From: an uncultured Algibacter sp.
GTDB lineage: Bacteria; Bacteroidota; Bacteroidia; Flavobacteriales; Flavobacteriaceae
Reading direction: 5' to 3'
DNA: 64,000 nucleotides
Assembly: GCF_963976535.1 (NCBI RefSeq)
Contig: NZ_CAXBLF010000008.1
Span: 1,922 to 65,921, forward strand
Positions 11,918-48,388 of the stretch are shown here, piece after piece (position 1 is the stretch's first letter; the number at the start of each line of letters is the position of its first letter). The translations under genes were made by a program, and so were the position numbers. Under the pieces are notes generated by a model that worked only from the letters and a program-made list of their open reading frames with translations, ran no database searches and was not told the origin of the DNA.

Positions 11918-11935
11918 TCCCGATAGCTATCGGGA
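11918..11935. repeat. 18-bp perfect palindrome TCCCGATAGCTATCGGGA
   Basis: Exact self-complementary 18-mer; also at 17988, 26595 and 38111, degenerate at 48247. Confidence 0.9.
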
Positions 11936-11962
11936 TTCAAGGAAATGAAAAAATAATTAATT

Positions 11963-12313
11963 ATGAAAAAAGTATATTATTTAAAAACCTGTAGCACCTG
12001 TATTAGAATTTTAAAAGCGCTGAATTTATCTTCAGAATTTGTTTTGCAAGACATTAAATCTGAAGCCATTACTGTAAAGCAAGTTGAATACATGAAAGCA
12101 CTGGCAGGAAGCTATGAAGTACTCTTCAGTAAACGTTCAAAATTATACAAAGAAATGGATTTGAAAAACCAAGACTTAACTGAACGTGATTATAAACACT
12201 ATATTCTAGACCACTATACCTTTTTAAGTAGGCCTGTTATTATAGTTGATAATCAAATTTTTGTTGGAAACTCTAAAAAAACTATTGAAGCTGCACAGGC
12301 TGCGCTAAATTAA
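11963..12313 (+). CDS. ArsC/Spx-like arsenate reductase family protein
   Basis: YYLKTCSTC (CxxC) and FLSRPVII motifs. Confidence 0.85.
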   Translation: MKKVYYLKTCSTCIRILKALNLSSEFVLQDIKSEAITVKQVEYMKALAGSYEVLFSKRSKLYKEMDLKNQDLTERDYKHYILDHYTFLSRPVIIVDNQIFVGNSKKTIEAAQAALN

Positions 12314-12339
12314 AACAGATTGATAGAACATATTAAAAA

Positions 12340-12367
12340 AAAAGTCCAACAGAAATGTTGGACTTTT
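12340..12367 (+). terminator. Intrinsic terminator (probably bidirectional)
   Basis: aaaagtccaaca-gaaa-tgttggactttt, 12-bp perfect stem. Confidence 0.8.
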
Positions 12368-12486
12368 AATTTGTTCCCTTTCGTGTATTACTATCGAACC
12401 AATTAAATTTGATTTTCAAAGAGTTAGACCTAAAACAAACCTTTCTTAGACATCGAACCAAATAGCTTATAATACAATATATTAGT

Positions 12487-12657
12487 TTATTCCTCCTTTT
12501 TTAAATCCTTCGGATACACCTTTACTATTTTACCGTTTTCCGAAAAAATTAAAGGTGTATTTTTTTACGCTTTGAACTTCAATAACTTCTCATAAGCTTT
12601 TTCTAAACCTATTGAGATTTTATCCTCTAATTCTTCTAGTTGTTCTTTAATTTCCAT
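12487..12657 (-). pseudogene. Small partner gene of the zeta-toxin-like ATPase, with a premature stop
   Basis: MEIKEQLEELEDKISIGLEKAYEKLLKFKA*KNTPLIFSENGKIVKVYPKDLKKEE; overlaps the end of the ATPase remnant. Confidence 0.7.
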
Positions 12658-13202
12658 AATGTTTTTCTTTTAATTTATTCCAAACTATCCTGTCTTTAAT
12701 GGTTAGTTTATCACGCGTACCTTCTGCTAAAATTTAAATCTTTTTTCTGAATTATCAGCAATTATCCATTTAACGACTAGTTGGATATATTTCTGAAACA
12801 AATTCTTTAATCCATTTTTATAGCGTCTTCTAATAACATCTACTGGGATATTATGTCCGCCTTCCAGTACTCTGGTTTTAACACGTTCAATTGCTAATTC
12901 TTCTGAGTCTAATTTTAAAAACAATAAAATGACTTCATAATCTTTTTGTTTAGCTTTTTTTATGAAACTAACATAGCTATTAGTTGATAACGTAGTTTCT
13001 AGGGCAAAAGTCTTGCCAGCTTCTACTAACTCATAATTCTAGTCAGCATTATTCTTCCGGCTTGAAAAGCAACTAAGTCTGGGTTAAAAGGCGAAATGCC
13101 TCTTGCTATTTCGTCTGCGTTTACAAACTCTTTACAATCAAATATTTCAGGCAAAACGGTAAATGAGGCTGTTGTTTTACCTGCTCCGTTAGGATCTCCA
13201 AT
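12647..13202 (-). pseudogene. Zeta-toxin-like / COG4185 P-loop ATPase broken by two frameshifts
   Basis: GDPNGAGKTT...NADEIARG; shifts near 13030 to ELVEAGKTFALETTLST...RVLEGGHNIP; shifts again near 12728 to AEGTRDKLTIKDRIVWNKLKEKHYGN*. Confidence 0.85.
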
Positions 13203-13400
13203 TAAAAGATTGTCCAAAAATCTAGTTTTACCATTTACTTCCAGTTTATATAATGAACTAGAAGAAGGTGTTATACCAATTCCAATGTTTCCTGTTAAGT
13301 TTGTACTCGCTGTACCATTTGCTGAAGTTCCGTTTTCGTCTGTAACTTGGGAGTAAGAAAATGTTACCGTAAGACCGATTAATAAAAATAATTTTTTCAT
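13026..13400 (-). CDS. Chimeric ORF: signal peptide plus GNIGIG...KLEVNG segment fused to the ATPase N-terminus
   Basis: First ~66 aa resemble secreted or tail-fibre-like GNIGIG repeats; the rest is a P-loop kinase start. Confidence 0.55.
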   Translation of the reverse strand: MKKLFLLIGLTVTFSYSQVTDENGTSANGTASTNLTGNIGIGITPSSSSLYKLEVNGKTRFLDNLLIGDPNGAGKTTASFTVLPEIFDCKEFVNADEIARGISPFNPDLVAFQAGRIMLTRIMS

Positions 13401-13884
13401 AATAAAATAGAATTATGATACACATTTTTAATCTAAGTAGAATACTCGATAAATTGTTAACAAATCTTTCTTTTTAGAGTATCCTGTTGAGGAAAACCCG
13501 TAATTTTATATTTAAAAATAATAATTTAAAAATTACAGATAGCATATTGTTAGGTTGAGTGTAATTGAAATAATATAGGAAGTCTTCTAAATCTTCGATT
13601 AGATAATGTATAGAACTTTCTGAATAAATATTTTACTATCATAAACTAAGTATTCTGCTATTAAAAAAATAAGCCAATTGCTTCTAAATCATTAAGTTTA
13701 GGCTGATGTCTTTAATAAGTTAAATTGTTGTACTCTATTATTTTTATAAAACTTACAATATACTTTCGTAACTTGCATTTAAGTTGTTCGTTATTATTGT
13801 TTTTAGGCTAAAACAATATGCTGATTACCAGCAAGATGAGCAATTTTTTTTATTTCAAATTAGTACGCTTAAGTGTATTATAAT

Positions 13885-17570: not shown

Positions 17571-17584
17571 CTTATCATTACTTG

Positions 17585-17658
17585 CTCCTTCTCTTGGGCT
17601 CGAACCAAGGACCCTCTGATTAACAGTCAGATGCTCTAACCAACTGAGCTAAGAAGGA
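17585..17658 (-). tRNA. tRNA-Asn(GTT)
   Basis: Reverse complement folds to a 74-nt cloverleaf: TCCTTCT/AGAAGGA acceptor, TCTGA-CTGTTAA-TCAGA anticodon arm, GGTTCGAG T-loop; no encoded CCA. Confidence 0.97.
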
Positions 17659-17661
17659 GTG

Positions 17662-17946
17662 TTACTTATATTTATTTTTAAGCTTTTTAGTACTTTCAGG
17701 ATACTTTTTCAGATTCTGAATATTCGTTTTGCTTTTCATTTTTTTAATATGGGTTTCTATTTTTCTTGCTTGAATTCTATCATTACATTCAATAGTGTAA
17801 TATATTTTCCAGTCTTTTACCTGTTTGGTAAAAGAAGCTTCATAAAAACCAGAATTATGTTATTCAATTCTGTCTTGTAAATCCACAGTTTCACCAACAT
17901 AATATCTGTCAAGTGAATTAGAATACAAAATGTAAACAAAATTCAT
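17662..17946 (-). pseudogene. GIY-YIG nuclease with one in-frame TAA (17860-17862)
   Basis: Hand translation: MNFVYILYSNSLDRYYVGETVDLQDRIE*HNSGFYEASFTKQVKDWKIYYTIECNDRIQARKIETHIKKMKSKTNIQNLKKYPESTKKLKNKYK; the stop lies 3 nt before the tRNA 5' end. Confidence 0.9.
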
Positions 17947-17977
17947 TTTTACTAATTTTAAAAGAACTTACTCGCTT

Positions 17978-18022
17978 TGCTCTAACCTCCCGATAGCTAT
18001 CGGATGAGCTAAGAAGGAGTGT
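17978..18022 (-). repeat. Pseudo-tRNA-Asn 5' half with a TCCCGATAGCTATCGG palindrome in the D-loop
   Basis: Direct repeat of 17632-17662 except that aac is replaced by tcccgatagctatcgga (17988-18004). Confidence 0.88.
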
Positions 18023-18128
18023 GTTTTTTTACTAAGCGAGTGCAAATATATGTTGTTTTTTAATTACTGCAAATATTTTTTTAATAAATTTTACCTGAGT
18101 ACATGACAAAAATTGATAATATATCGGA

Positions 18129-18201
18129 TGTCAATCTGAGCGCAGTCGAAGACATTGGAAATATCGTATTCAAAAGCATTTCGACTGCGCTCAATGTGAC
18201 A
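18129..18201. repeat. REP doublet (GAGCGCAGTCGA family)
   Basis: tgtcaatctgagcgcagtcgaagac ... catttcgactgcgctcaatgtgaca. Confidence 0.9.
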
Positions 18202-20781: not shown

Positions 20782-20783
20782 GC

Positions 20784-26318: not shown

Positions 26319-26466
26319 ATTTGAAGCTATTCCTGCTATCCGCTGTATCTTTCTTGTGCTGAACTTGTTTCAGTATCTCATCAAGTGATTTGAATACAAG
26401 ATAGTACAAGTTTTAAATAAAATTTTGGAGTTGGCACAAAAAAGTATGCCGCTTCTATCAGGGCTA
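26319..26466 (-). repeat. Dispersed structured repeat (GATAGAAGCGGCAT...AAAGATACAGCGGATAG family) with a nested gtgctgaacttgtttcagtat palindrome
   Basis: Reverse-complement arms match 48053-48070 and 48162-48178. Confidence 0.65.
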
Positions 26467-26516
26467 GATTATCAGCCAAGGTCAGGTTTAAAGCAGACAA
26501 TTAGTGATAAACCTGC

Positions 26517-26551
26517 GAATAGAGAATAGAGAATAGAGAATAGAGAATAGA
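26517..26551 (+). repeat. Heptamer tandem repeat (GAATAGA)x5
   Basis: Five exact copies. Confidence 0.95.
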
Positions 26552-26594
26552 GGAATTAAAAAAATCCTCGGCTTGAACTTGATTTTTTGGTTCG

Positions 26595-26612
26595 TCCCGA
26601 TAGCTATCGGGA
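26595..26612. repeat. 18-bp palindrome TCCCGATAGCTATCGGGA
   Basis: Exact copy of 11918-11935. Confidence 0.9.
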
Positions 26613-26633
26613 TGAACAAATAAAGAAATAGAT

Positions 26634-27413
26634 ATGACTATTAAAGTAAATAAAAACCCAGAAGAGATTCCTGCCTCCACAGGAAGAATCGCCGTTAAAG
26701 TAGACGATTTAACAGTAGCCTACAACTATAAACCAGTACTTTGGGATATCGATTTAGAAATTCCAGAAGGCGTACTTATGGCCATTGTAGGTCCAAATGG
26801 CGCTGGAAAATCAACCCTTATAAAATCCATCTTAGGTATATTAAAACCCATTGCAGGTAGCGTTACGATCTATGACAAACCTTATGAAAAACAACGCTCA
26901 TTGGTCGCCTATGTCCCACAAAAAGGAAGTGTGGACTGGGATTTCCCAACAACAGCATTAGATGTTGTAATGATGGGGACTTACGGTAGCTTAGGCTGGA
27001 TAAAACGCCCTGGGCAAAAAGAAAAGAAAGCAGCCTTAGAAGCTTTAGAGAAAGTAGGGATGCTTGCTTTTAAAGGCAGACAAATAAGTCAGTTATCTGG
27101 CGGGCAACAGCAGCGTATTTTCCTAGCACGAGCATTGGTACAAAACGCCTCAATTTATTTTATGGATGAACCTTTTCAAGGAGTTGACGCAACAACCGAA
27201 ATAGCCATAATCAACATTCTAAAAGAACTCAGAAAAGCAGGAAAAACAGTCATTGTAGTACATCACGATTTACAAACTGTTCCAGAGTATTTTGATTGGG
27301 TAACCTTTCTAAACGTAAAAAAGATTGCTACAGGACCGGTTAAAGATATCTTCAATGATGATAACTTAACAAAAACCTACGGTATTAACTATAAAGTAAG
27401 TGTCCAAGAGTAG
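26634..27413 (+). CDS. Mn/Zn ABC transporter ATP-binding protein
   Basis: [25 protein letters not shown]. Confidence 0.95.
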
Positions 27414-29901: not shown

Positions 29902-30592
29902 TGTTATTCAGAGCATAACGAAGAATCTACTTTACAAAAATTTATCAAATTGCAAGTATAAAACAATAAGTGTATATATTTTTTGATGATGAGACTTTAA
30001 GATTCATTAGTCGTACCTCCATCTGAATGACATTCGATTTATTTTCCTTTGAATGACAATGTCATTCAGAGCGGAGCGAAGAACCTCTTTTATAAAAAGT
30101 TTATTAAATTAACAGTATGAAAACAATTGGCAATCATAATTATTACGTTTACATGCTTACTAATAAAAGTAAAACGGTTTTATATACTGGTGTGACTAAT
30201 AATTTGAAAGATCGTCTTTATTTTCATAAAAATCCACTTCCATTTTCTAAAGCATTTACATCGAAATATAAATGTTATTATTTAGTTTATTATGAGCATT
30301 TTTTTCAAATTGAAAACGCAATTAAAAGAGAGAAACAGATAAAAGGTAAGAGTAGAGCAAAAAAAGACGCTTTAATTTTCGATTTTAATCCTTCGTGGTC
30401 CTTTTTAAATGAAAATATATAATTTTTCAAGATTCTTCAGTCGTTCCTCCTTCTGAATGACATTACGGTTTCTTTTCTTTGAATAGCAATGTCATTCAGA
30501 GGGTAGCGAAGAATCTTTTTTAATAATATTTTACTAAATTCACATTATTAGAGCTAATAAGATTCTTCAGTCGTACCTCCTTCTGAATGACA
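29902..30592. mobile_element. Array of three palindrome-pair (REPIN-like) units, the middle one carrying a GIY-YIG gene
   Basis: A arms at 29902, 30060 and 30490 (TGTCATTCAGAG..GCGAAGAATCT); B arms at 30000, 30430 and 30560 (AGATTCTTCAGTCG..CCTCCTTCTGAATGACA). Confidence 0.8.
30117..30422 (+). CDS. Stand-alone GIY-YIG nuclease (UPF0213/YhbQ-like)
   Basis: YYVYML...LYTGVT...DRLYFH...LVYYE...AIKREKQIK...NPSW. Confidence 0.93.
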   Translation: MKTIGNHNYYVYMLTNKSKTVLYTGVTNNLKDRLYFHKNPLPFSKAFTSKYKCYYLVYYEHFFQIENAIKREKQIKGKSRAKKDALIFDFNPSWSFLNENI

Positions 30593-32375: not shown

Positions 32376-35300
32376 TCAAGCCACAATAGGTTGTAAAGTC
32401 TCTAATGCTTGTTTTACAGATTTAATATTCTCAAAAGTTAGCATTAATCTTAAACCGCTTCGAGTTTGTTTCTCTTTCATTTTACAAGTGCTAGGATTAG
32501 TTTGTACAAATTGCAACACTTTGGTAAAATTAGCACTTTGATAAAACCTACTTTGTTGATCGTTTATAAAATAACCAATCAACTTACCTTGTTTCATAAT
32601 AATTTTTTCAAACCCAATTTTAGTAGCTAACCACTTTATTTGGACACTATTTAATAAATCGGTCACTTGTTTTGGTAATTCTCCAAAACGGTCGATTAAA
32701 TCCATTTCAAAGATATGCAATTCTTCTTCTGTTTTTAAGTTATTAAGCTGCGTGTATAAATTAAGTCGTTCAGCAATATTATTCACATAATTATCTGGAA
32801 ATAAAAGCTCAAAGTCAGTATCAATAGTTACATCTTTAACGTAAACTTTGTTAGCTTCATCTTCATTATATAAATCTTTAAACTCATTTTCTTTTAACTC
32901 CTCGATAGCTTCATTCAATATTTTTTGATAGGTATCAAAACCTATTTCATTTATAAAACCACTTTGTTCTCCGCCCAATAAATCGCCAGCACCACGAATT
33001 TCTAAATCTTTCATCGCGATATTGAATCCGCTTCCCAATTCCGTGAATTGCTCTAAAGCTGTAATACGTTTTCTAGCATCATCAGTCATGGCCGAATACT
33101 CTGGTGTAATAAAATAACAGAATGCTTTTTTGTTACTCCGACCTACTCTACCGCGCATTTGATGCAAATCGCTTAATCCAAAATTATTGGCATTATTGAT
33201 GAAAATGGTATTAGCATTTGGTACATCAAGTCCGCTTTCTACAATTGTCGTACTTACCAATACATCAAAACCGCCATCCATAAACGAAAGCATAAGTTGC
33301 TCTAATTTTTTACCTTCCATTTGCCCATGACCGATACCTATTTTTGCATCGGGCACCAAACGTTGAATCATACCTGCAACTTCTTTAATATTTTCAATAC
33401 GATTATGTATAAAGAAAATTTGCCCACCACGTTGTATTTCGTAGCTGATGGCATCACGAATAGTTTCTTCGCTAAAACGAATTACGTGACTTTCAATCGG
33501 GTATCGATTTGGAGGTGGTGTTGTAATGACTGATAAATCTCGAGCAGCCATTAAGCTAAATTGTAACGTTCTCGGGATTGGTGTAGCGGTTAACGTTAGC
33601 ACATCCACATTATCTTTTAAAGTCTTAAGTTTTTCTTTTACGGCTACGCCAAATTTTTGTTCTTCATCAACAATCAACAAGCCTAAATCTTTAAACTTAA
33701 CATTTTTATTAACGAGTTGATGTGTGCCAATAAGGATGTCCACTTTCCCCTGTTCTAAACCTTCTAAAGTTTCTCGTTTCTCTTTTGCTGTCCTAAAACG
33801 GTTGACGTAATCTACCGTAACAGGAAAATCTTTTAAACGCTCTCTAAACGTTCTAGAATGTTGATATGCTAAAATGGTAGTTGGCACCAAAATAGCAACT
33901 TGCTTCCCATTATCTACCGCCTTAAACGCTGCACGAATTGCTACTTCGGTTTTACCAAAACCTACATCGCCACAAATCAAACGATCCATGGGGCGTTCAC
34001 TTTCCATGTCTGCTTTTATATCAGCTGTTGCCGTAGTTTGGTCTGGAGTGTCTTCGTAAATAAAAGAGGCTTCCAATTCGTGTTGCATATAACTATCAGG
34101 ATTATACTGATAGCCTTTTTCGGTTTTACGTTTCGCGTAAAGTTTTATTAAGTTGAAAGCCACATGTTTTACACGTGCCTTTGTTTTTTGTTTTAGGGTT
34201 TTCCAAGCATTACTTCCCAATTTGTAAATCTTGGGTGGTTTGCCATCTTTACCATTAAACTTGGTGATTTTATGTAGCGAATGAATACTTAAATACAGCA
34301 CATCGCGCTCGCCATAAACCAATTTAATGGCTTCTTGTTTTTTACCTTCTACATCTATTTTTTGAAGTCCGCCAAATCGCCCAATACCATGATCGATGTG
34401 TGTTACGTAATCGCCAATATCTAAATTTGTGAGTTCCTTTAATGTTATGGCTTGCTTTTTAGCATACCCGTTTTTAAGATGAAATTTATGATAACGCTCG
34501 AAAATTTGATGATCGGTGTAACACACTATTTTATTATCGTGGTCTGTAAAACCTTGATGTAGGGATAAAATAATGGTTTGATATTCTTTGACATCGAGAT
34601 GTGAATCATCAAAAATATCATGAAAACGTTTTGCCTGTTGTTCGCTTACGCATGCAATGTAGTTTGTATAACCGTTTTCGCTATTGGTATTTAGATCTTC
34701 GATTAATAGATTGAATTGTTTATTGAATGCTGGTTGCGGTGTGGTGTGGTGTTCAATAGTTTGAGATTCTTCGCTTCGCTCTGAATGACAAAAGACACTC
34801 TGTGTCCCAAACTCTATAACTGAAAAGTCGAGTAACTGCCTTTTTAATACTGTTGAATTACAAAATAGTTCGTTAGGTTCGGCATGTTTAATATCTGTTG
34901 AAAGTGTTTTAAAAGCGTCTTGTGCTTTATCATAAAAATCATCAATTCTAGAAAAAAGTAAATCGGCATTTTTTAAACACACTACTGTTTTTTGAGCAAT
35001 ATATTTCAGAAAACTTTGTCGGTTTTCTTGTAATAATTTATTCGCTACATTAGGAATAATGCTGATTTTTTTAATCTGCTCGATGGAAAGCTGTGTTTCT
35101 ACATCAAAGGTTCTGATACTGTCCACTTCATCACCAAAAAACTCGATTCGATAAGGCTCGTCATGTGAAAATGAAAACACATCTACTATGCCGCCTCGCA
35201 CTGAAAACTCTCCAGGTTCTGTAACAAAATCGACACGCTTGAATTGATATTCAAACAAAACTTCGTTTACAAAATCAATAGACACCTTATCATTGACACC

Positions 35301-35735
35301 AATTTTTAGTGTGTGACGTTCTAGCTCTTTTCTAGTAACTACCTGTTCAAAAAGGGCATCGGGATAGGTAACAATAATTGCTGGTTTTTTTTGAGAATTT
35401 ATACGGTTTAAAACCTCGGCGCGTAATAACACATTGGCGTTATCGGTTTCTTCTATTTCATAAGGTCTGCGGTAACTGCCAGGATAGAACAGCACATCTT
35501 TGTCATTGCAAAGTTGTTCTAAATCGTTTAGGTAATGTGCCGCTTCTTCTTTATCGTTAAACACCAACAAAAATGGTTTTTCAGCTGCTTTAAAAACTGT
35601 TGAAATAACAAAAGAAAAAGAAGATCCTACAAGTCCTTTTAAATGTGTTTTTGTTCCAGTTTGGGCAATAGCATTCCGCAGATTTTGCGTTTGCAAAGTC
35701 TGTAAATAGGTTTTCGAGAGAATGGTTTTACTCAC
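32376..35735 (-). CDS. mfd: Transcription-repair coupling factor
   Basis: CarD-like HIDHGIGRF, CGDVGFGKT, DEEQKFG, TATPIPRT, QMRGRVGR. Confidence 0.97.
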   Translation of the reverse strand: MSKTILSKTYLQTLQTQNLRNAIAQTGTKTHLKGLVGSSFSFVISTVFKAAEKPFLLVFNDKEEAAHYLNDLEQLCNDKDVLFYPGSYRRPYEIEETDNANVLLRAEVLNRINSQKKPAIIVTYPDALFEQVVTRKELERHTLKIGVNDKVSIDFVNEVLFEYQFKRVDFVTEPGEFSVRGGIVDVFSFSHDEPYRIEFFGDEVDSIRTFDVETQLSIEQIKKISIIPNVANKLLQENRQSFLKYIAQKTVVCLKNADLLFSRIDDFYDKAQDAFKTLSTDIKHAEPNELFCNSTVLKRQLLDFSVIEFGTQSVFCHSERSEESQTIEHHTTPQPAFNKQFNLLIEDLNTNSENGYTNYIACVSEQQAKRFHDIFDDSHLDVKEYQTIILSLHQGFTDHDNKIVCYTDHQIFERYHKFHLKNGYAKKQAITLKELTNLDIGDYVTHIDHGIGRFGGLQKIDVEGKKQEAIKLVYGERDVLYLSIHSLHKITKFNGKDGKPPKIYKLGSNAWKTLKQKTKARVKHVAFNLIKLYAKRKTEKGYQYNPDSYMQHELEASFIYEDTPDQTTATADIKADMESERPMDRLICGDVGFGKTEVAIRAAFKAVDNGKQVAILVPTTILAYQHSRTFRERLKDFPVTVDYVNRFRTAKEKRETLEGLEQGKVDILIGTHQLVNKNVKFKDLGLLIVDEEQKFGVAVKEKLKTLKDNVDVLTLTATPIPRTLQFSLMAARDLSVITTPPPNRYPIESHVIRFSEETIRDAISYEIQRGGQIFFIHNRIENIKEVAGMIQRLVPDAKIGIGHGQMEGKKLEQLMLSFMDGGFDVLVSTTIVESGLDVPNANTIFINNANNFGLSDLHQMRGRVGRSNKKAFCYFITPEYSAMTDDARKRITALEQFTELGSGFNIAMKDLEIRGAGDLLGGEQSGFINEIGFDTYQKILNEAIEELKENEFKDLYNEDEANKVYVKDVTIDTDFELLFPDNYVNNIAERLNLYTQLNNLKTEEELHIFEMDLIDRFGELPKQVTDLLNSVQIKWLATKIGFEKIIMKQGKLIGYFINDQQSRFYQSANFTKVLQFVQTNPSTCKMKEKQTRSGLRLMLTFENIKSVKQALETLQPIVA
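34764..34790 (-). repeat. REP A-arm in frame inside mfd (CHSERSEES)
   Basis: Reverse complement tgtcattcagagcgaagcgaagaatct matches the 30060 and 30490 arms at 25/27. Confidence 0.9.
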
Positions 35736-36654: not shown

Positions 36655-36726
36655 ATCTTACAAATTTTAATCGAACACCATTGGATTTAAAACTATAAAA
36701 AATGCGAACTTGTTGGTTCGCATTTT

Positions 36727-38880
36727 TTATTTATGTAATTTTAATTGAATACGCTTACGTGGAATATCTACCTCTAACACTTTTACAATAATTTGTTGAT
36801 GCAAACTCACGTGTTCGTTTACATCTTTTACAAATGAATCAGATAAGTTTGATACATGAATTAATCCACTTTCTTTGATACCAACATCTACAAAACATCC
36901 AAAGTTTGTTATGTTATTGACGATTCCTGGAAGTAGCTGTCCTTCGCGTAAGTCGTTTATCGTTTTTATATTTTGATTGAAGGTGAATACTTTAGCTTGC
37001 TCTTTAATATCCAAACCAGGTTTTTCAAGTTCTTTAATGATATCTTCAAGCGTTAGCAGCCCAACTGAATCTGTGCAATATTTTTTTAAATCAATCTTTT
37101 GAAGTACATCTTTATTTCCAATTAAATCATGAACTGATTTACCCAAATCTTTAGCCATTTTAGTTACTATCCCATAACTTTCAGGATGTACTGCAGAATC
37201 ATCCAATGGGTTTTTAGCACCCTTAATTCTCAAAAATGCAGCGCCTTGCTCAAAGGCTTTTTCGCCTAAACGTGGTACATTTTTAATCTCTTTTCTAGAT
37301 GTGAATACGCCATTTTCATTTCTGTAATTGAAAATATTTTCGGCTAGTTTTGAACCAATACCTGAAACAGAGCTTAGCAACGGTTTACTTGCTGTATTGA
37401 TGTTTACACCAACAGCATTTACACAATTTTCTACCACAACATCCAATTGCTTTTGAAGTTTGGTTTGATCTACATCATGCTGGTATTGACCAACGCCAAT
37501 AGATTTTGCATCAATTTTTACCAATTCGGCTAGCGGATCTTGTAAACGACGCCCAATAGAAACTGAACCCCGAACCGTAACATCATAATTTGGAAATTCT
37601 TCTCTAGCAATTTTTGAAGCTGAATAAATACTAGCTCCTGCTTCACTCACCACAAACACTTTTACATCGTTTTTAAAATGCACTTTTCTAATCAAAGCTT
37701 CTGTTTCTCTTGAAGCGGTGCCATTTCCAATGGCTATGGCTTCAATTTTATAAGCATCGGCTAACGAGCCTATTTTTTTCATAGCTCCGATGCTATCGCT
37801 TTTTGGTGGATGCGGATAAATGGTTTCGTTATATTTTAATTGCCCTTGAGCGTCTAAACATACCACTTTGCAACCTGTTCTAAATCCTGGGTCTATGGCT
37901 AAAACGCGTTTTTCACCTAATGGCGACCCTAATAATAATTGTTTTAGGTTTTTAGCAAATACGATAATTGCAGATTCATCGGCTTTTTCTTTTGCAATTT
38001 GCAACGCTTCATTACTTAAGGACGGTAATAATAATCGTTTGTAAGCATCTTTAATGGCAAGTTCTATTTGTTCCCTGCCAGCAGGCAGGCTAGGCGCGCA
38101 AGCGTTATTACCCCGATAGCTATCGGGGCGAATCATTCTACTTTCAATTTTATCTAAAGCTTTATCATTATCTATCTCAATTTTAACACGAATAAACCCT
38201 TCACTTTCGGCTCTTAAAATAGCTAACAATCGGTGTGATGGAATTCTGCTTAAGCGCTCTTCCCAATCAAAATAATCTCTAAACTTTTGCGCTTTTTCAT
38301 CCGCTGCCTTTGTTTTTATCACTTTCGTGGAAATCATAGCGAAACGCTCTAATTGATGACGAATATTATTTCTTATATCGGTTCGTTCATTAATCCATTC
38401 GGCAATAATGTGTCGCGCCCCTTCTAAAGTGTCTTCAACTGAATTTATCTCGCCTTTCACATATTTAAATGCTATGGATTCGATATCGTTAACATTTTGG
38501 CTCATTATGATTTTAGCGAGTGGTTCTAATCCATTTTGGCGTGCTTTTTCTGCTTTGGTTTTTCTGCTTTTCTTGTATGGTAAGTATAAATCTTCAAGTG
38601 TGGTTATATCTTGAGTAGCTTCTATTTTTTGTTTTAATTCTGGAGTTAAAACAGCTTGTTCTTCTAAAGCTTTTAAAATGGCTTTTTTTCGTTTTTCTAA
38701 AGCTTCAAATTGCTCTTTAAGCTTAACGATTTCTCCTATTTGAACCTCATCTAAATTTCCCGTGCGTTCTTTTCTGTAACGCGAAATAAAAGGGATGGTG
38801 CAATCTTCATTAAGTAATTCAATCGTGTTTTTTACCGATTGTTTAGGTAGTTTCGTATTTGAAATTATATAATCTATCAT
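36727..38880 (-). CDS. tex: Tex family RNA-binding protein
   Basis: TIPFISRYRKE, DPGFRTGCK, GRRLQDPLAELVK, HhH and S1 domains. Confidence 0.95.
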   Translation of the reverse strand: MIDYIISNTKLPKQSVKNTIELLNEDCTIPFISRYRKERTGNLDEVQIGEIVKLKEQFEALEKRKKAILKALEEQAVLTPELKQKIEATQDITTLEDLYLPYKKSRKTKAEKARQNGLEPLAKIIMSQNVNDIESIAFKYVKGEINSVEDTLEGARHIIAEWINERTDIRNNIRHQLERFAMISTKVIKTKAADEKAQKFRDYFDWEERLSRIPSHRLLAILRAESEGFIRVKIEIDNDKALDKIESRMIRPDSYRGNNACAPSLPAGREQIELAIKDAYKRLLLPSLSNEALQIAKEKADESAIIVFAKNLKQLLLGSPLGEKRVLAIDPGFRTGCKVVCLDAQGQLKYNETIYPHPPKSDSIGAMKKIGSLADAYKIEAIAIGNGTASRETEALIRKVHFKNDVKVFVVSEAGASIYSASKIAREEFPNYDVTVRGSVSIGRRLQDPLAELVKIDAKSIGVGQYQHDVDQTKLQKQLDVVVENCVNAVGVNINTASKPLLSSVSGIGSKLAENIFNYRNENGVFTSRKEIKNVPRLGEKAFEQGAAFLRIKGAKNPLDDSAVHPESYGIVTKMAKDLGKSVHDLIGNKDVLQKIDLKKYCTDSVGLLTLEDIIKELEKPGLDIKEQAKVFTFNQNIKTINDLREGQLLPGIVNNITNFGCFVDVGIKESGLIHVSNLSDSFVKDVNEHVSLHQQIIVKVLEVDIPRKRIQLKLHK
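38074..38128 (-). repeat. Two palindromes in frame inside tex (RPDSYRG and SLPAGR)
   Basis: ccccgatagctatcgggg (38111-38128) and cctgccagcaggcagg (38074-38089). Confidence 0.88.
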
Positions 38881-42047: not shown

Positions 42048-44114
42048 TTAACTAATACTTAACCCATTGCCAACACTGGCATCATCAGGATTTACAAACA
42101 CTAATTTACCTTCTGCCGTTTCAGTCATTAAAATCATACCTTGGCTTTCAACACCTCGTAACGCTCTTGGAGCTAAATTCACTAATACAGTTACACGTTT
42201 TCCAACAACTTCTTCCGCATTAAAACTTTCAGCAATACCAGACACAATGGTTCTTGTATCAATACCTGTATCAATTTTAAGTTTTAATAGCTTTTTGGTT
42301 TTTGGCATTTTTTCGGCTTCTAAAATGGTGCCTACTCGAACATCTAACTTTGTGAAATCTTCAAAAGTGATGGTGTCTTTTTGAGGTTCTAATGTTTTGT
42401 TGGCCGCTTCGTTTGCCTTTTTACTTGCTTCTAATTTATCGAGTTGTTTTTGGATGGTTTCATCTTCAATTTTTGAGAATAATAATTCTGCTTTTCCTAT
42501 TTTGTGTCCTGCTGGCAATAAAGTTTCTTTTGTGCTTACTTCATTCCAAGACGTTTCGACTGCGCTCAACGTGACATTAAGAATACCTTTCAGTTTTGTT
42601 GATGTAAACGGTAAAAAAGGTTCACATAAAGTCGCTAATGCCGAAGCTATTTGAACCGACACATACATAATAGTTTGTGTTCTGGCTTCATCAACTTTAA
42701 TGACTTTCCAAGGCTCTTCATCTGCTAAATATTTATTACCCAAACGTGCTAAATTCATTAATTCTTGTCCCGCTTCTCTAAAACGATAACGCTCTATTGA
42801 ACTTGCAATGACATCTGGATACGCTTTTATTTTAGCTAAAATTTCGGCATCAACTTGGGTGAAATTACTCGGAGCCGGCACTATACCTTCATAATATTTG
42901 TTGGTAAGCACGACTACTCGGTTTATAAAGTTCCCGAAAATAGCTACTAACTCATTATTATTTCTAGCTTGAAAATCTTTCCAAGTAAAATCGGTATCCT
43001 TCGTTTCCGGCGCATTAGCATTTAATGCATAACGCAACACATCTTGCTGACCTGGAAATTCTTTTAAATACTCAGGTAACCAAACCGCCCAATTCTTAGA
43101 CGTGGATAATTTATTGCCTTCTAAATTTAAAAACTCATTTGCAGGCACATTTTCTGGAAGGATATAACTGCCTTCGGCTTTTAACATGGCTGGAAAAATA
43201 ATACAGTGAAATACAATATTATCTTTTCCTATAAAGTGAACTAGTTTAGTGTCTTTATCTTTCCAATACGGTTCCCAGTCTTTTCCAACGCGGTCTGCCC
43301 ATTCTTTGGTTGAAGAAATGTAACCAATAGGCGCATCAAACCAAACGTATAGCACTTTGCCTTCTCCTCCTTCTGCTGGCACAGGAATTCCCCAATCTAA
43401 ATCTCTGGTTACCGCTCGTGGACGTAGCCCATCATCAATCCAAGATTTACATTGTCCGTAAACATTGGGTTTCCAATCTTTTTTATGACCTTTAAGAATC
43501 CATTCTTTTAAAAACGCTTCATGTTTATCTAAAGGTAAAAACCAGTGTTTTGTTTGCTTTAAAGTCGGTACATTTCCTGTAATTGCCGATTTTGGATTAA
43601 TTAAATCTGTAGCATTATGGCTCGTTCCACAGTTTTCACATTGGTCGCCATAACTTTCTTCATTACCACATTTAGGGCAAGTTCCCACAACAAAACGATC
43701 TGCTAAAAACTGATTTGCTTCTTCATCATACAACTGTTCTGTAGTTTCTTCTATAAATTCACCTTTTTTATCTAAAGTTTTAAAAAAATCTGAAGCTGTT
43801 TTATGATGAATAGGCGCCGATGTACGTGAATAATTATCGAAAGTTATTCCAAAATCTTCAAACGATTTCTTAATAATCGCATGATATTTATCAACTACAT
43901 CTTGAGGCGATACACCTTCCTTTTTTGCCTTAATAGTAATTGGCACACCATGTTCGTCACTTCCACCAATAAATGCTACATCATTCCCTGTTAAGCGTAA
44001 ATAGCGTGCATAAATATCCGCAGGCACATAAACCCCTGCTAAATGCCCAATGTGAATAGGTCCGTTTGTATATGGAAGTGCTGTGGTGATTGTATATCGT
44101 TTTGGCTTGCTCAT
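42048..44114 (-). CDS. metG: Methionine--tRNA ligase
   Basis: [13 protein letters not shown], Zn knuckle, KLSTS, C-terminal tRNA-binding domain. Confidence 0.97.
42552..42576 (-). repeat. REP arm in frame inside metG (VTLSAVET)
   Basis: cgtttcgactgcgctcaacgtgaca matches 18177-18201 at 23/25. Confidence 0.88.
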
Positions 44115-44131: not shown

Positions 44132-44324
44132 TGTCTGGTCGAGCGCAGTCGAGACCTGATTAAAAACCTCTCGACTGCGCTCGAGGGGACAAAACATGCT
44201 AATTTCAAAGTCATTGCGAATGAGATTCGACTGTGGTAATCTCATGAATTGGGGTTCTCATTCAACAGATTCCCGTACTTCGACTGCGCTCAGTACAGGC
44301 AAACTCCGTTTCGGTCGGAATGAC
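44132..44324. repeat. REP cluster: GAGCGCAGTCGA doublet (44132-44191) plus a GTCATTGCG/AATGAC doublet (44210-44324) with a nested arm
   Basis: cttcgactgcgctcagtacaggc is inserted inside agattcccg...ggaatgac. Confidence 0.8.
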
Positions 44325-44590
44325 GGTTCATTTTGAAACCGTAAAAGTAAACAATTTGAGGGCTATTTAGAAAAAAAGTATTAAACATAAAGATTAAGAA
44401 ATTACTGCAATAAGTTCAGCTTAAAGTGCAATGCCTTACTTCAAGATATTGAACTGGTTTAAACTTTTTCAAATTCGGAATTTAATTATGAGATCCCGCT
44501 CTACAGCGGGATTAGTTCAGCTTGCTATTTTGAATGCGTCTTTCAGACTTTTCAAAATAGAGTTTCACTAAAAAAATGTACATTTACATT

Positions 44591-45607: not shown

Positions 45608-45796
45608 ATAAATTTAACTAAGACTTTAAAATACTCAAATTTACACCAGTCTTTTCACCGAATAAATACGCTTTTTGTAGGCTACATCGTTGATTGAACG
45701 AGCAATAAGGGGCAATCAACCATTTTTTTTAAGAATTATTAAAATTTGCCATAATCTTGTATGTAAATATTAATAATCCTTAAAACCCCTAACAAA

Positions 45797-46033
45797 ATGA
45801 AAAAATTACAATTATTATTCGTAGCCATGATACTTTTACTTTCAATTGATGTAAAGGCTGATGACATTGTCAATTCAAGTTTGAATTTAAGCAACCCTGA
45901 CGTGCGTAAATGTTTAGTGGAAGCTACAAAAAGTGAAGGCTGGAAATTAACAGCATTATATTACAACGCTGATGAGAAATTAGTTATGATTTTTGAAAAA
46001 GGTAATAACACTAAAACGTATATGAGTAAATAA
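45797..46033 (+). CDS. Small exported hypothetical protein
   Basis: Signal peptide MKKLQLLFVAMILLLSIDVKA. Confidence 0.65.
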   Translation: MKKLQLLFVAMILLLSIDVKADDIVNSSLNLSNPDVRKCLVEATKSEGWKLTALYYNADEKLVMIFEKGNNTKTYMSK

Positions 46034-46092
46034 TTACTATTTAATCAAAATATTTTAAACCAGTTATTCATTTTTGTCTAGCTGGTTTTTTA

Positions 46093-46545
46093 TTAAACTC
46101 CAAACTGATTTAGATGATGGTTTAAATGTTTGTAAAACATGTTATTCCATTCTTGTTTTGTTAATTTTCCAAAAGAATGTGATTCCATCCCATCAAAATG
46201 ATTTTCTCCTAAACTTTGTGACTTCTTTAAATAGTCTATTAATCTCGCTTTTTCTTCTACAAAATTTCTAGCATTTGTAATTAAAAATTGTGGTGCTGTT
46301 CTGCTATTCTTTTTATAAGGTTTGCTTCCTACAACCGTATTTTTAACAAATAGCTTTAGCATAAATTTTGTAAACCCATTTGGTTTTGCATGTTTGTCTT
46401 CAAAAGCCATTTCGTAAGTAACGTTGCAATGTGCTAACATTTGGTCTGCACTCATTTTTCCCCATAACGGTTTTGTTATTGGCTCTAGTTTATTAATTCT
46501 ATCAATAACTGTGTTGGTTTCTTTAGCGTCGAAAATATTTTTCAT
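46093..46545 (-). CDS. DUF1569 (DinB-like) protein
   Basis: PLWGKMSADQMLAHC, HSFGKLT, KHLNHHLNQFGV. Confidence 0.88.
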   Translation of the reverse strand: MKNIFDAKETNTVIDRINKLEPITKPLWGKMSADQMLAHCNVTYEMAFEDKHAKPNGFTKFMLKLFVKNTVVGSKPYKKNSRTAPQFLITNARNFVEEKARLIDYLKKSQSLGENHFDGMESHSFGKLTKQEWNNMFYKHLNHHLNQFGV

Positions 46546-46815
46546 GTCTTAAAAAATTTGATTGATATAGGTGAATTCACCTTGTCCTTTTCTATTTCCT
46601 AAAAAACGGCTGAAATTCGCCCATCTTTCGTCTATTTTTTTATGCGTAGCGATGCTATTCCTTTCAAAAACAGTCTCATCTGAACAGATTTCAGCTTATT
46701 TTCGGTTAAAAACAAAAAGTCAAAATGAATTCATTGATTTAAGAAATCGTATGCAATTTAATTATTTTAAGTGAAGTCTAATAAAATTTAATTCTAAGAT
46801 TAAAACCATTCTATT

Positions 46816-47139
46816 CTAACTCGCGCAATTGACACATAATAAACTTTGTGGGCGAATTAAAATTCTACCTATTGGGATAGGTTGTTTGCATTTTAAACAA
46901 ACACCAAAGTCTTGGGTTCCAAATTTTTCGAGTACACGCTTTAGGTTTCCCAATTTAATTTCGGCTTGACGCAAAGATGCTTCAGTGACACTTTTGTTAT
47001 TTATAGCATCCATTCTACTTACTCTACCAATAGAAACATCTGGAGCTATAGGTTTTGTCAATTCTTTATAGTCTAAAATTGCCTTTTCAGTCTTCGAAAT
47101 TTCTTCTATTATTTTTATTTTAATACCTTCTTGATCCAT
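46816..47139 (-). CDS. TraR/DksA C4-type zinc finger protein
   Basis: IGRVSRMDAINNK; CLKC...CVNC. Confidence 0.9.
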   Translation of the reverse strand: MDQEGIKIKIIEEISKTEKAILDYKELTKPIAPDVSIGRVSRMDAINNKSVTEASLRQAEIKLGNLKRVLEKFGTQDFGVCLKCKQPIPIGRILIRPQSLLCVNCAS

Positions 47140-47191
47140 TTAAAATATTACGTTTTTTGATGCAGATTTTGAGTTTATAGGATTTGTCCAA

Positions 47192-47968
47192 CTAAAACCC
47201 ACGCTCTTTCTGAATCTGCTCATAAGCCGCTTGTACTTGTCTAAATTTTTCTTCAGCGCCTTCTTGGTGTTCCTTACCTAAATGAATCACTTTATCTGGG
47301 TGGTATTTTTTAGCCATTTTTCGGTAGGCTTTTTTAATCTCATCTACAGAAGCACTTTTCGTTATTTCTAAAACCTTATAAGCATTATCACTACTGTTAT
47401 AAAACATGGCTTTAATACTTTCATAATCTCTAGAACTAATGCCTAAATAACCTGCCATAGTATATATTTGACGTTCTTCATCATTTGTGACTGTGCCATC
47501 AGCTTTTGCTATGCCAAATAAGAAATGCATGAGTTGCAAACGTGATGGGTGATCCATCATTTGGCGGATTTGCAGACACACTGGCCTTACTGAAACATGT
47601 TGCTTACTTATATTTTTAAACAATTTAAAAGCATGATTTGCACGGGCTTTTCCATACATGTTTGTAAACTGCTGACGCACAAAATCTAACTCGCGTTGGT
47701 CTTGTTTTCCATCGGCTTTAATAACTACAGAGGCTAAAACGAGTAGGCTCACTTCAAAATCGCCCGATTGGGTTTGAGGGCGTTGTCTGGGTTGTGTTCT
47801 GTAAGTTGTTCTCTGGCGACCTCTCGATTCCCTTTCTCCTAAAAGCGGGTTACCCCCACCATCTGCCATAGCATCTATAACACTTCCTATGGCTAATCCA
47901 ATAATTGCACCTATTGGACCACCAAACGACCATCCTAAAGCACCTCCTATCCATTTTGAAAAACTCAT
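47192..47968 (-). CDS. DjlA-like co-chaperone (TerB plus J domain)
   Basis: [13 protein letters not shown] motifs, HPD J-domain. Confidence 0.9.
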
Positions 47969-48044
47969 GTAATTTTTTTGTTTTTAATACGTCCAAATAT
48001 ACTATTGTTAGTTGAATTTTTTATCCTTTTGTTACAATTGTACT

Positions 48045-48218
48045 GCGTTAAGGATAGAAGTGGCATCCTTTATGCGAAGAATTGATACTATATATTTTCT
48101 TTATAAATAAAAATTATTTAATAGTTAGAGATCCCGAAGCAAGTTCGGGACTGCTTCGCAGAAAGATATAACGGATAGCCTGACCTTATAACGCCATAAG
48201 CGTTTTAAGGGAACGCCC
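48045..48218 (+). ncRNA. Structured Flavobacterial repeat/ncRNA candidate (Flavo-1-like) carrying internal inserts
   Basis: gcgttaaggatagaagtggcatcc...aaagatataacggatagcctgacc...gggaacgccc; nested atcccgaagcaagttcggga. Confidence 0.45.
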
Positions 48219-48388
48219 AGAAAAAGATTAACAATAATTTATGAGTTCCCCATAGACATCGGGATTAGTTCAACTATATCATTTTACGGCGTTGTAAAAA
48301 CAACTTATAAAATGATAGTCTCACTAAATTGCATGATTTTTGATTAACTTTGTACAATTATTAATTATAAAATAAAAAATTTAAAAAT

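Follow-up and report, generated by a model that had tools for sequence, protein, structure and literature searches.

In fungal mitochondria, the PstI palindromes of Neurospora have an 18-nt core and flank tRNA genes; yeast has GC clusters, and in Allomyces, double-hairpin elements adjoin mobile endonuclease ORFs. Rickettsia contain palindromic elements of 100-150 bp that lie in frame inside protein genes. In Nostoc and other cyanobacteria, Elhai et al. are said to have described, in 2008, dispersed repeats of 21-27 nt as "very small mobile repeated elements." We know of no mobiliser that has been identified for these cyanobacterial repeats, or of any role that is currently assigned to the stand-alone GIY-YIG (UPF0213-like) proteins that are widespread in Bacteroidota. 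Palindromic repeats are also found in the mitochondria of Fusarium (PMC7218506). REP and REPIN sequences are short, GC-rich, and mostly intergenic palindromes, and the RAYT transposase that goes with them is encoded by a single repeat-flanked nuclease gene (PMC2817692, PMC3116915). Finally, phage T4 has a free-standing GIY-YIG homing endonuclease, SegB, whose gene lies in a tRNA gene cluster (PMC2330249; also PMC13096335), and Seg-type cuts leave 3' overhangs (PMC2330249).

Here we describe a perfect palindrome of 18 bp, TCCCGATAGCTATCGGGA (PAL), in a window of 64 kb (the whole stretch of DNA that we analysed) from a marine flavobacterium. We argue, with a probability of roughly 60%, that a widespread selfish unit of Bacteroidota, about 400 bp long and mobilised by a GIY-YIG protein, has PAL as its cis element. 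As we picture it, the unit would consist of a gene for a 94-aa stand-alone GIY-YIG protein, placed in a tRNA transcription unit, and a partial tRNA that is interrupted by PAL, with an intact tRNA adjoining. A search of a literature library found no description of a unit of PAL, GIY-YIG gene, and tRNA, and this selfish unit appears to be previously undescribed.

PAL copies in the window

The window has four copies of PAL: three are solitary, and one is in a unit at 17584-18020. Two of the solitary copies are exact 18-mers (11918-11935 and 26595-26612) and the third is a variant, CCCCGATAGCTATCGGGG (CCCC..GGGG), at 38111-38128 inside tex. All of these had been reported in a preliminary description of this DNA, which also stated, correctly, that the four strong copies have unrelated flanks. 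It listed a further copy at 48247-48264. That hairpin, TCCCCATAGACATCGGGA, does match PAL at 15 of 18 positions (3 mismatches), but it is a doubtful member: it lies within a 54-nt repeat (44486-44539 versus 48239-48292, 72% identity) and belongs to that repeat rather than securely to PAL, because the paralogous copy at 44486-44539 bears a different hairpin.

In 100 dinucleotide shuffles of the window, there were no matches to PAL even at up to 3 mismatches. The exact 18-mer occurs in at least 120 genome stretches, as against about 9 expected in 596 Gb, and every named one is from Bacteroidota. PAL spans hundreds of independent assemblies, both isolates and MAGs, from this one phylum only, and independent metagenome contigs of DNA and of RNA bear it. 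The idea that PAL reflects matches by chance, or adaptor hairpins or some other sequencing or assembly artefact, is already refuted. Covariance models from Rfam 15 matched only tRNA and Flavo-1 in the window.

The copy at 11918-11935 lies 28 nt before the start codon (ATG) of a gene of the ArsC family (11963-12313), at the tip of an outer stem, ATTTCC/GGAAAT (11912-11946). It is found in 10 of 10 metagenome strains of the species, with a G>A variant in two of them. The copy at 26595-26612 lies 22 nt before the ATG where a gene for a znuC-like ABC ATPase starts (26634-27413). The znuC-like gene is preceded by a conserved hairpin whose apex, of about 20 nt, was swapped for PAL, and the basal stem GGTTCG/TGAAC (26589-26617) is retained around it. 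In relatives, PAL is missing upstream of the znuC-like gene, so in the znuA-znuC spacer it is a gain; likewise, related genomes have a spacer of 57-80 nt upstream of the arsC-like gene, without PAL.

The variant in tex (36727-38880, minus strand) translates as R-P-D-S-Y. It is present in 10 of 10 strains of the species and in none of 12 related Tex genes. It had been suggested that 18 nt, or 6 codons, could be tolerated in frame. The insertion is indeed in frame, but the net gain is 15 nt, or 5 codons, because target bases were replaced. A second, independent insertion in tex (38075-38095, minus strand) adds 21 nt in frame (PSLPAGR) and is a hairpin of another family, CCTGCC-N4-GGCAGG.

PAL had also been said to lie often within another hairpin. 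This is true of three cases in the window, namely the stems at 11912-11946 and 26589-26617 and the D-loop of a 5' fragment of tRNA-Asn (17978-18020, minus strand). It is not the majority state: outer stems of 5 bp or more surround 12% of 129 copies, versus 4% of control positions, so nesting is enriched but in the minority.

Could PAL instead be a selected cis site that does not move and is retained wherever it is of use, either as the operator of a regulator that binds as a dimer or as a hairpin in RNA that affects termination or the stability or processing of mRNA? In the window, the two intergenic copies are 22-28 nt before start codons, the copies are fixed in all of the strains that were sampled, the conserved hairpin at 26595 keeps its stem while PAL takes its tip, two-fold symmetry is what a protein that binds as a dimer would need, and the unit is transcribed. 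Nevertheless, we consider this quite improbable. The positions are not conserved between genera, and copies are found in coding sequence (about 20% are within long open frames), in tandem repeats, in one another, and in tRNA fragments. The symmetry of the central 4 nt would be useless to an RNA hairpin, and replacement of 3 nt is the signature of an insertion event. An operator for a transcription factor was rejected given the copies in coding sequence and tRNA fragments, and given that in relatives neither the arsC-like nor the znuC-like gene has PAL upstream of it. We also rejected an intrinsic terminator: PAL is a GC-rich hairpin, but no T run follows the copies in the window. (Some copies elsewhere are inside the loop of a terminator, as at L310 and L325.) We conclude from these comparisons that PAL is no conserved regulatory site.

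The tRNA-Asn unit

The order of the unit is a tRNA fragment with PAL, the GIY-YIG gene, and the intact tRNA, all on the minus strand. The fragment (17978-18020) is an orphan copy of tRNA-Asn, positions -2 to 28, that reads ACTCCTTCTTAGCTCA, PAL, GGTTAGAGCA, with PAL in place of the GTT of the D-loop. As first described, this PAL has just 17 nt (17988-18004), with one base of a G/C run absent; scored as an 18-mer (17988-18005), it has 2 mismatches. Contigs of DNA and RNA from other strains have an extra G, which makes a perfect 18-mer. The native tRNA promoter box, TATATTTG, is at 18036-18050. The GIY-YIG gene (17662-17946) has 94 codons and belongs to the PAL-linked, stand-alone family, but it is inactivated by an in-frame change of CAA to TAA at codon 29 (17860-17862). 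Its stop codon is 3 nt before the intact tRNA-Asn(GTT) at 17584-17658, which completes the unit. RNA contigs cover the tRNA, the gene, and the PAL-bearing fragment.

Tamlana, Algibacter, and other relatives have an empty site at tRNA-Asn, so filled and empty alleles both exist. The A14|PAL|G18 junction is seen again in 16 or more loci of other genera. Many genera have PAL at this same position of the tRNA-Asn D-loop, since it moves along with the unit. The preliminary description had set fixed positions across species against a mobile insert, and they are found for this unit-borne copy only.

The window has a second GIY-YIG gene (30117-30422, plus strand), which is intact and from another subfamily. 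It is flanked by direct repeats of 123 nt (29996-30118 and 30426-30548) that are built from a different hairpin family. This is a parallel case of a GIY-YIG gene that is paired with its own palindromic repeat.

A survey of related loci

We chose 80 loci with similarity to the stand-alone GIY-YIG protein of 94 aa as the sole criterion. PAL, with up to 2 mismatches, is within 400 nt of the gene at 74 of them, and the other 6 have more diverged PAL-like copies, most of which are perfectly palindromic. Among the 80 units, none is without PAL or a variant; the unit always has PAL or a symmetric variant of it. A tRNA is within 500 nt at 72 of the 80, at stereotyped distances, and the PAL of a unit is always in a partial tRNA copy that adjoins an intact tRNA. 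At loci that were selected for PAL instead, all 6 of the GIY-YIG genes that we found are within 450 nt of it. Both the link between PAL and the tRNA/GIY-YIG element and the proposed co-occurrence across genomes hold up.

Intact relatives contain the PF01541 domain (Pfam, E about 1e-13), and Y5, Y16, R26, H30, E64, and N78 are invariant catalytic residues. The proteins are 82-117 aa long (mostly 93-96 aa) and consist of the catalytic domain and a short C-terminal helix motif, with no separate DNA-binding domain. The nearest solved structures are the UPF0213 proteins 1zg2 and 1ywl.

Partial tRNA copies flank the gene, that is, a tRNA segment is duplicated at the junctions. At least 14 of the 80 loci have the arrangement PAL-gene-PAL, and the PALs that flank one gene have the same rare symmetric variant. 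There are also tandem arrays, with a period of 391-431 nt, in which the GIY-YIG gene is the sole ORF of the repeating unit. An integrase-type tRNA element shares the duplication of the tRNA, but we rejected this class: the unit has no tyrosine or serine recombinase gene.

The PAL-gene-PAL loci and the tandem arrays raise another idea, that solitary PALs are footprints, much like solo LTRs, of whole PAL-flanked units that can insert at any site and are later lost when their two PALs recombine. This seems very improbable to us. Units are tied to tRNA genes (besides the proximity to tRNA, the units that we examined closely bear tRNA fragments), no unit was seen at the types of site where solitary PALs are found, and the solitary sites do not have tRNA-like flanks.

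The insertion signature

We mapped 64 insertions onto the adjacent intact tRNA. All 64 are in a loop (D, anticodon, variable, or T) or at a loop junction, and in 52 of them PAL takes the place of exactly 3 nt. Self-nested copies and heptamer tracts show this loss of 3 nt too, and in 82% of copies the palindrome does not extend past 18 bp. Judging from these alignments with tRNAs and relatives, PAL enters DNA as a sharply bounded block of 18 bp that replaces 3 nt, and there is no target duplication. The copy at 26595 is an exception, with about 20 nt replaced. The targets include tRNA loops, other hairpins, the center of PAL itself, tandem heptamer tracts, and coding sequence (in frame). The earlier proposal that PAL inserts at hairpin loops fits every one of the mapped tRNA cases, but the insertion is not a plain one, as 3 nt are replaced, and just a minority of solitary copies have a recognizable outer hairpin.

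Variants with two changes are symmetric in 27 cases and asymmetric in 8, where about 2% would be expected to be symmetric. The symmetric variants include central AATT and GGCC. Because symmetry is kept even at the center, PAL seems to be recognized as duplex DNA.

We rejected MITEs or solo transposon ends, as the target loses 3 nt rather than being duplicated and half-sites never pair. We found 50 isolated half-sites in 4.27 Mb, and none were paired as the ends of a longer element; they are mostly mutated or nested PALs, with a few chance 9-mers.

The distribution of PAL

Solitary PALs exceed unit-borne ones by about 20 to 1. Copies in the wider set have unrelated flanks and some are self-nested, and solitary copies are missing at the orthologous places in related genera. 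Within the species of the window, the sites are fixed rather than polymorphic in the strains that were sampled. These absences, the in-frame gain in tex, and the self-nesting agree with the original suggestion of a mobile insert, and the solitary PALs are lineage-specific gains. The density of PAL is uneven: there are 8 copies in 1.40 Mb around rseP and none in 1.44 Mb around tex, as compared to 4 in the 64 kb of the window. Five of the 8 copies near rseP are in fragments of tRNA-Asn that are, or formerly were, next to a GIY-YIG gene. The exact 18-mer is also in 46 viral stretches, none of which has a gene of the PAL-linked GIY-YIG family.

It is conceivable, but we think unlikely, that PAL is moved by some other enzyme of the host or of a phage and that the GIY-YIG/tRNA units merely collect it, because dead copies of tRNAs are tolerant stem-loop targets. 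The great excess of solitary copies would fit, as would PAL on viruses without the gene, variants of PAL that do not follow the clades of the protein, and the dead GIY-YIG gene in the window. The last three of these also count against our preferred explanation, as does the swap of about 20 nt at 26595. On the other hand, all 80 units bear PAL or a variant, at stereotyped positions, and they do so even where PAL is rare, as the counts for tex and rseP illustrate. If units merely collected PAL, then young units without it should exist, yet there are none among the 80. Nor would this explain why the same rare symmetric variant is on both sides of one gene.

A possible mechanism

The association strongly supports the preliminary suggestion that the GIY-YIG family mobilises PAL, together with insertion at loops; that the protein catalyses the movement is what we infer from the association. 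The GIY-YIG protein, probably dimeric on a duplex of two-fold symmetry, would recognize PAL and make breaks. A staggered cut could leave 3-nt 3' overhangs that are lost, and PAL would then be pasted or copied in, giving 18 nt in and 3 nt out. GIY-YIG enzymes typically leave 3' overhangs, but the described lengths are 1-2 nt, so an overhang of 3 nt is an assumption. The layout of the unit is circularly permuted relative to the tRNA, which, along with the tandem periods of 391-431 nt, fits integration of a small circle. Such a circle may integrate by a single crossover (or by homing) via the PAL-interrupted tRNA segment, on the side where the tRNA stays intact. Because the PAL-linked gene in the window is dead and yet solitary copies are many, we assume that there is an intact copy elsewhere or that the activity was in the past.

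A further difficulty is that the same loops are unharmed in the intact tRNA that adjoins the unit; our model has no account of this other than selection.

Comparison with known systems

Like REP/REPIN sequences and their RAYTs, PAL repeats are short, GC-rich palindromes that are mainly intergenic, they flank a single small nuclease gene, and they are non-autonomous and far outnumber that gene. However, RAYTs are HUH/Y1 transposases, while the gene that is consistently beside PAL encodes a GIY-YIG nuclease (PF01541). REPs are imperfect palindromes of 20-40 nt with a GTAG/CGTC end tag; PAL is a perfect 18-mer that does not form REPIN doublets, and there is no conserved tetranucleotide in its flanks. 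Also unlike REP/RAYT, the PAL-linked gene is placed in tRNA genes and accompanied by a partial copy of the tRNA, 3 nt are replaced, and there are in-frame coding copies. Given the lack of a tag and the different nuclease, we reject membership in this class.

The similarity to SegB is that tRNA genes have a GIY-YIG gene between or within them, and that this gene spreads along with tRNA sequence from its flanks. All of the conserved residues of the domain (Tyr, Tyr, Arg, His, Glu, and Asn) are present, as in Seg proteins and I-TevI. But Seg proteins are encoded by phages, have a separate DNA-binding domain, and lack a palindrome or mini-element, whereas here there is a bare UPF0213-type catalytic domain of 94 aa. 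With no linker-joined DNA-binding domain, it departs from the Seg/I-TevI type in this respect.

Like the small repeats of Nostoc, PALs are lineage-specific inserts that nest in each other and lie in hairpins and genes, but PAL is from another phylum and has a different sequence, a nuclease gene is consistently linked to it, and the signature at its targets is defined. The fungal GC clusters are also short GC-rich palindromes in AT-rich genomes, near tRNA genes and endonuclease ORFs and sometimes in frame. Unlike PAL, they are organellar and unrelated in sequence, and no rule of 18 nt in and 3 nt out has been described for them. Rickettsia palindromic elements resemble PAL in being tolerated in frame in protein genes, but they are longer, are from a different phylum, and have no linked nuclease gene.

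Implications

Tentatively, and at slightly less than even odds, we would go further. The bare GIY-YIG protein may act like a transposase for a new class of bacterial mobile DNA, in which the unit of about 400 bp is autonomous and lives in tRNA genes thanks to its PAL-interrupted tRNA segment, the 18-bp PAL is its non-autonomous form (and the smallest mobile DNA known), and insertion into hairpin loops proceeds by a cut with a deletion of 3 nt. Likewise, other GIY-YIG subfamilies, such as that of the gene at 30117-30422, would drive other hairpin repeats of Bacteroidota, and the whole would be a counterpart of REPIN/RAYT that is built on a different nuclease fold.

PAL is a simple annotation marker for units and for recent insertions, and a nuclease with a symmetric site of 18 bp would interest tool developers. 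If our explanation is correct, then it would add a new mode of DNA mobility, with a unit of 18 bp, a target loss of 3 nt, and targeting of loops. It would explain the origin of short GC-rich hairpins in the intergenic regions, structured RNAs, and some proteins of Bacteroidota, and it would give a role to their orphan stand-alone GIY-YIG (UPF0213-like) proteins. Because PAL remodels 5' leaders (the tip of the znuC hairpin was lost) and adds peptide loops to conserved proteins such as Tex, it is also a source of regulatory and protein variation.

Results

Copies of the palindrome in the window

The exact 18-bp palindrome (PAL), TCCCGATAGCTATCGGGA, occurs twice in the window, at 11918-11935 (site 1) and 26595-26612 (site 3), as the preliminary description reported. 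It was also right about a defective copy at 17988-18004 (site 2) and about a copy in tex at 38111-38128 (site 4), which is PAL with two outer changes (CCCC..GGGG). We do not count its fifth copy, a 15/18 match at 48247-48264, which is part of a different 54-nt repeat; the paralogue of this repeat at 44486 has another hairpin. The window has a G+C content of about 32%, and PAL is the only GC-rich hairpin sequence in it with verbatim repeats. There were no matches to PAL at 3 or fewer mismatches in 100 dinucleotide-preserving shuffles.

Site 1 caps an outer stem and is 28 nt upstream of an ArsC-family gene; site 3 is 22 nt upstream of the gene for a znuC-like ABC ATPase; and site 4 lies within tex, where it is translated as RPDSY. 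Site 2 is on the minus strand, where the first 28 nt of tRNA-Asn are duplicated (ACTCCTTCTTAGCTCA-PAL-GGTTAGAGCA) and PAL replaces the D-loop triplet GTT. This fragment is followed by a 94-codon GIY-YIG gene, which has an in-frame nonsense codon at codon 29, and then by the intact tRNA-Asn. In DNA and RNA contigs from other strains, an extra G makes site 2 a perfect 18-mer, and the RNA contigs cover the tRNA, the gene, and the fragment. The nearest named relatives by similarity of RseP and Tex are Tamlana, Litoribaculum, and Algibacter (84-88% amino-acid identity), and exact proteins of the window are also present in TARA and other marine metagenomes, which identifies the source as an uncultured flavobacterium of the family Flavobacteriaceae from the sea.

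The window also contains two Flavo-1 RNA motifs, at 26325-26469 (minus strand) and 48042-48189 (plus strand), both of them 60-130 nt from PAL or PAL-like hairpins. At four loci from other genomes (L002, L041, L094, and L100), a hairpin inside Flavo-1-like elements is replaced by PAL. The spacer between znuA and znuC has five tandem copies of the heptamer AATAGAG (around 26520-26555), and similar tracts are often targets of PAL in other genomes.

A unit with a GIY-YIG gene and a tRNA

PAL is an integral part of a unit of about 400 bp that combines a tRNA fragment, which has PAL in one of its loops, a small GIY-YIG gene, and an intact tRNA; this architecture is repeated for several tRNAs. Among loci that were selected for PAL, all 6 GIY-YIG genes of the PAL-linked kind were within 450 nt of a PAL. 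For the reverse test, we scanned for loci with an alignment of five proteins, using peptide patterns only and blind to PAL, and obtained 80 loci across the Bacteroidota. The expected co-occurrence of PAL with tRNA-linked GIY-YIG genes was borne out: 74 of these loci have a PAL (2 or fewer mismatches) no more than 400 nt from the gene, and 72 have a tRNA no more than 500 nt away. In the other 6 loci, the copies are decayed or are PAL-like but more diverged (for example, CCCCGAAAGCTTTCGGGG or CTCCGATAGCTATCGGAG). We saw 110 non-redundant copies next to GIY-YIG genes, versus fewer than 1 expected at the background of about 3 per Mb. The main rival explanation is that another enzyme moves PAL and that the dead tRNA copies are merely tolerant targets; it is weakened because every unit has a PAL, even where PAL is otherwise rare.

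In the 5' type of unit, a fragment (1-14)-PAL-(18-28) is followed by the gene and by an intact tRNA that begins 1-8 nt past the stop codon. In the 3' type, an intact tRNA and its terminator are followed by the gene, the fragment with PAL, and a second terminator. Units also form tandem arrays with a period of 391-431 nt.

The PAL-linked protein is a bare GIY-YIG domain (PF01541) in which the catalytic residues are all conserved, with the C-terminal motif IExHIKxMKSKxYIxNLKKYPE. NCBIfam has no specific family or model for it, and among solved structures it is nearest to two uncharacterised UPF0213 proteins, BH0048 and EF2693.

Replacement at loops

The entry of PAL into DNA follows a stereotyped pattern in which it replaces nucleotides in loops. 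We mapped both flanks of PAL exactly onto the neighbouring intact tRNA in 64 non-redundant cases, with sites in the D loop, both T-loop junctions, the variable loop, and the anticodon loop. The preliminary description had proposed insertion into hairpin loops; the location holds, but PAL replaces nucleotides rather than simply adding to them. The number of nucleotides replaced is 3 in 52 of the 64 cases, 4 in 2, 5 in 8, and 6 in 2; GTT is the triplet lost in 29 cases. The same "18 in, 3 out" signature fits the net gain of 15 nt in tex as well as nested copies: where PAL lies within PAL (loci L327, L330, and L029), it occupies a central or near-central position in the outer copy, which has lost 3 nt. 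In heptamer tracts whose phase we read by eye, 3 nt are missing at three further loci (L010, L018, and L027). Automated phase analysis of tandem repeats found 3 nt missing in 3 of 6, there being few usable cases. Site 3 is an exception, with about 20 nt replaced.

Solitary copies are gains

Solitary copies of PAL are about 20 times as numerous as unit-borne ones, and they are lineage-specific gains. The alternative was a site conserved at fixed positions across species, and relatives lack PAL at the tex, znuC-upstream, and tRNA-Asn loci. In tex, 12 related genes read ..AT-AAAAAG-TAATAAC.. where the window has ..AT-TCG-CCCCGATAGCTATCGGGG-TAATAAC... The copy is in frame, as had been suggested, but the net gain is 15 nt, not 18. 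The hairpin GGTTCG-TTTTTTGGACAAGCAAAAAA-TGAAC stands upstream of znuC in relatives; the window retains its basal stem but has PAL in place of the apex. This hairpin (26571-26622 in the window; loci L428-L547 elsewhere) follows the pattern TTTTTTGGTTCG-T(5-8)-loop-A(5-8)-TGAACAAA, and its loop pairs with the 4-5 nt immediately upstream, a pseudoknot-like complementarity. It is a widespread motif, present in at least 120 metagenome stretches, so a conserved structure was destroyed at site 3. Rfam has no family for this hairpin or for PAL. The tRNA-Asn locus in close relatives is plain, without the fragment, PAL, or the gene.

There were 8 copies of PAL in 1.40 Mb of rseP-syntenic loci from 80 Flavobacteriaceae and none in 1.44 Mb of tex loci; the 64-kb window has 4. 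Polymorphic insertion within the species, as the preliminary description envisaged, did not hold up: sites 1 and 4 are present in all strains sampled (10 for each), and apparent length differences at these sites were scaffold gaps. (An exact-protein look-up of RseP for further strains returned one 1.5-kb contig only.) Because the sites are fixed in the species, the gains are older than the species and younger than the genus.

The tex gene of the window has a second gain, an unrelated hairpin (CCTGCC-N4-GGCAGG) in a 21-nt in-frame insertion 15 nt from PAL. This insertion (38075-38095) is independent of PAL and encodes PSLPAGR, and pseudo-tRNAs in other genomes contain related hairpins (L033 and L074). 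At the terminator after tex (about 36704-36721), the loop is inverted: GCGAAC-CAACAAG-TTCGC in the window versus GCGAAC-TTGTTGG-TTCGC in 10 other strains.

Distribution and symmetry of PAL

The exact 18-mer is present in at least 120 stretches of a species-representative genome collection, versus about 9 matches expected by chance in all 596 Gb. Among the matches listed, the named carriers are all Bacteroidota (Flavobacteriales, Chitinophagales, Cytophagales, Sphingobacteriales, Bacteroidales, and Saprospiraceae). Viral contigs contributed a further 46 stretches with the 18-mer, and several copies occur in some of these. Besides tRNA fragments, PAL is found in Flavo-1-like elements, terminator loops, and heptamer tandem repeats.

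The flanks of the copies are unrelated to one another, and PAL is a sharp 18-bp unit: 82% of 129 non-redundant copies lack even a 1-bp extension of the palindrome, and extension directly into the flanks was not enriched. Outer stems of at least 5 bp surround 12% of these copies (4% of control positions), direct repeats of at least 3 nt flank 12% (4% of controls), and about 20% lie inside open frames of at least 150 codons (80% of controls). The flanks have no target consensus except that T is avoided at -1 and A at +1, with a weak Y/R bias at ±3. We considered whether half-sites might be the ends of a larger transposon and rejected this: isolated half-sites are mostly mutated or nested PALs, with a few chance 9-mers, and none delimits a longer element.

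The 110 copies next to GIY-YIG genes comprise 57 canonical copies, 18 with one change, and 35 with two changes. Among the last group, 27 are again perfect palindromes, versus about 2% expected by chance, and these symmetric variants include central AGCT>AATT and AGCT>GGCC. Base pairing cannot explain the symmetry of the central 4 bases, which would be unpaired in the loop if PAL folded into a hairpin. This symmetry points either to recognition of PAL as duplex DNA with two-fold symmetry, for example by a homodimer, or to copying of one arm from the other as PAL is made. Variants showed no clear covariation with protein clades, and the same variants appear in separate clades.

Other repeats in the window

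A third hairpin family, GAGCGCAGTCGA...TCGACTGCGCTC, is at 792-865, 6633-6666, 18129-18201, 42543-42576, and 44132-44191, and its depth in a marine metagenome is 12,000-34,000, versus about 250 in the flanks. In one DNA contig, 18116 is joined directly to 18209 and the hairpin is absent, so this copy varies in presence and absence. Also, 53554-55367 consists of about three tandem units of about 880 nt each, with two paralogous ORFs (53819-54418 and 54666-55298) and three copies of an associated terminator-like hairpin.

Discussion

From its association with PAL, we infer that the GIY-YIG protein probably both recognises PAL and cuts the DNA. Short 3' overhangs are typical of GIY-YIG enzymes, and such ends are not fillable. 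Loss of an assumed 3-nt overhang before the 18-bp block was joined would therefore produce the "18 in, 3 out" signature. SegB, a GIY-YIG enzyme, leaves 2-nt 3' ends (PMC2330249). Relative to the tRNA, the layout of the unit is a circular permutation. A putative 400-bp circle with a PAL-interrupted tRNA segment could produce this arrangement through integration by a single crossover on the side of PAL that leaves the tRNA intact, and repeated integration would give tandem arrays. Alternatively, the layout might arise by homing between alleles.

The PAL system is functionally like REPIN/RAYT systems, the small dispersed repeats of cyanobacteria, the GC-rich palindromes beside tRNA genes and mobile endonuclease ORFs in fungal mitochondria, and free-standing GIY-YIG homing genes such as T4 segB, but it lacks the defining features of each. 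We rate it as belonging with short palindromic mobile repeats that have a dedicated nuclease gene. In the literature that we searched, no paper contains the 14-mer core of PAL, and none describes its sequence or its association with GIY-YIG genes and tRNAs. There is a substantial chance that the mechanism of its movement is new.

The window has a second, intact GIY-YIG gene (30117-30422, in the region 29903-30592). On either side of it is one copy of a 123-nt direct repeat (29996-30118 and 30426-30548; 80% identity), and each copy is built as an inverted doublet from another hairpin family (AGATTCTTCAGTCG..CTGAATGACA / TGTCATTCAGAG..AGCGAAGAATCT). This arrangement is reminiscent of REPIN/RAYT, except that the gene at its centre is a GIY-YIG gene. 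A perfect copy of the GTCATTCAGAG..CGAAGAATCT repeat at 34764-34789, inside a 1119-codon ORF (32376-35735), may be another in-frame hairpin insertion. Because this second gene has its own, different hairpin repeats, our results suggest that, in the Bacteroidota, small GIY-YIG genes are generally paired with palindromic repeats of their own.
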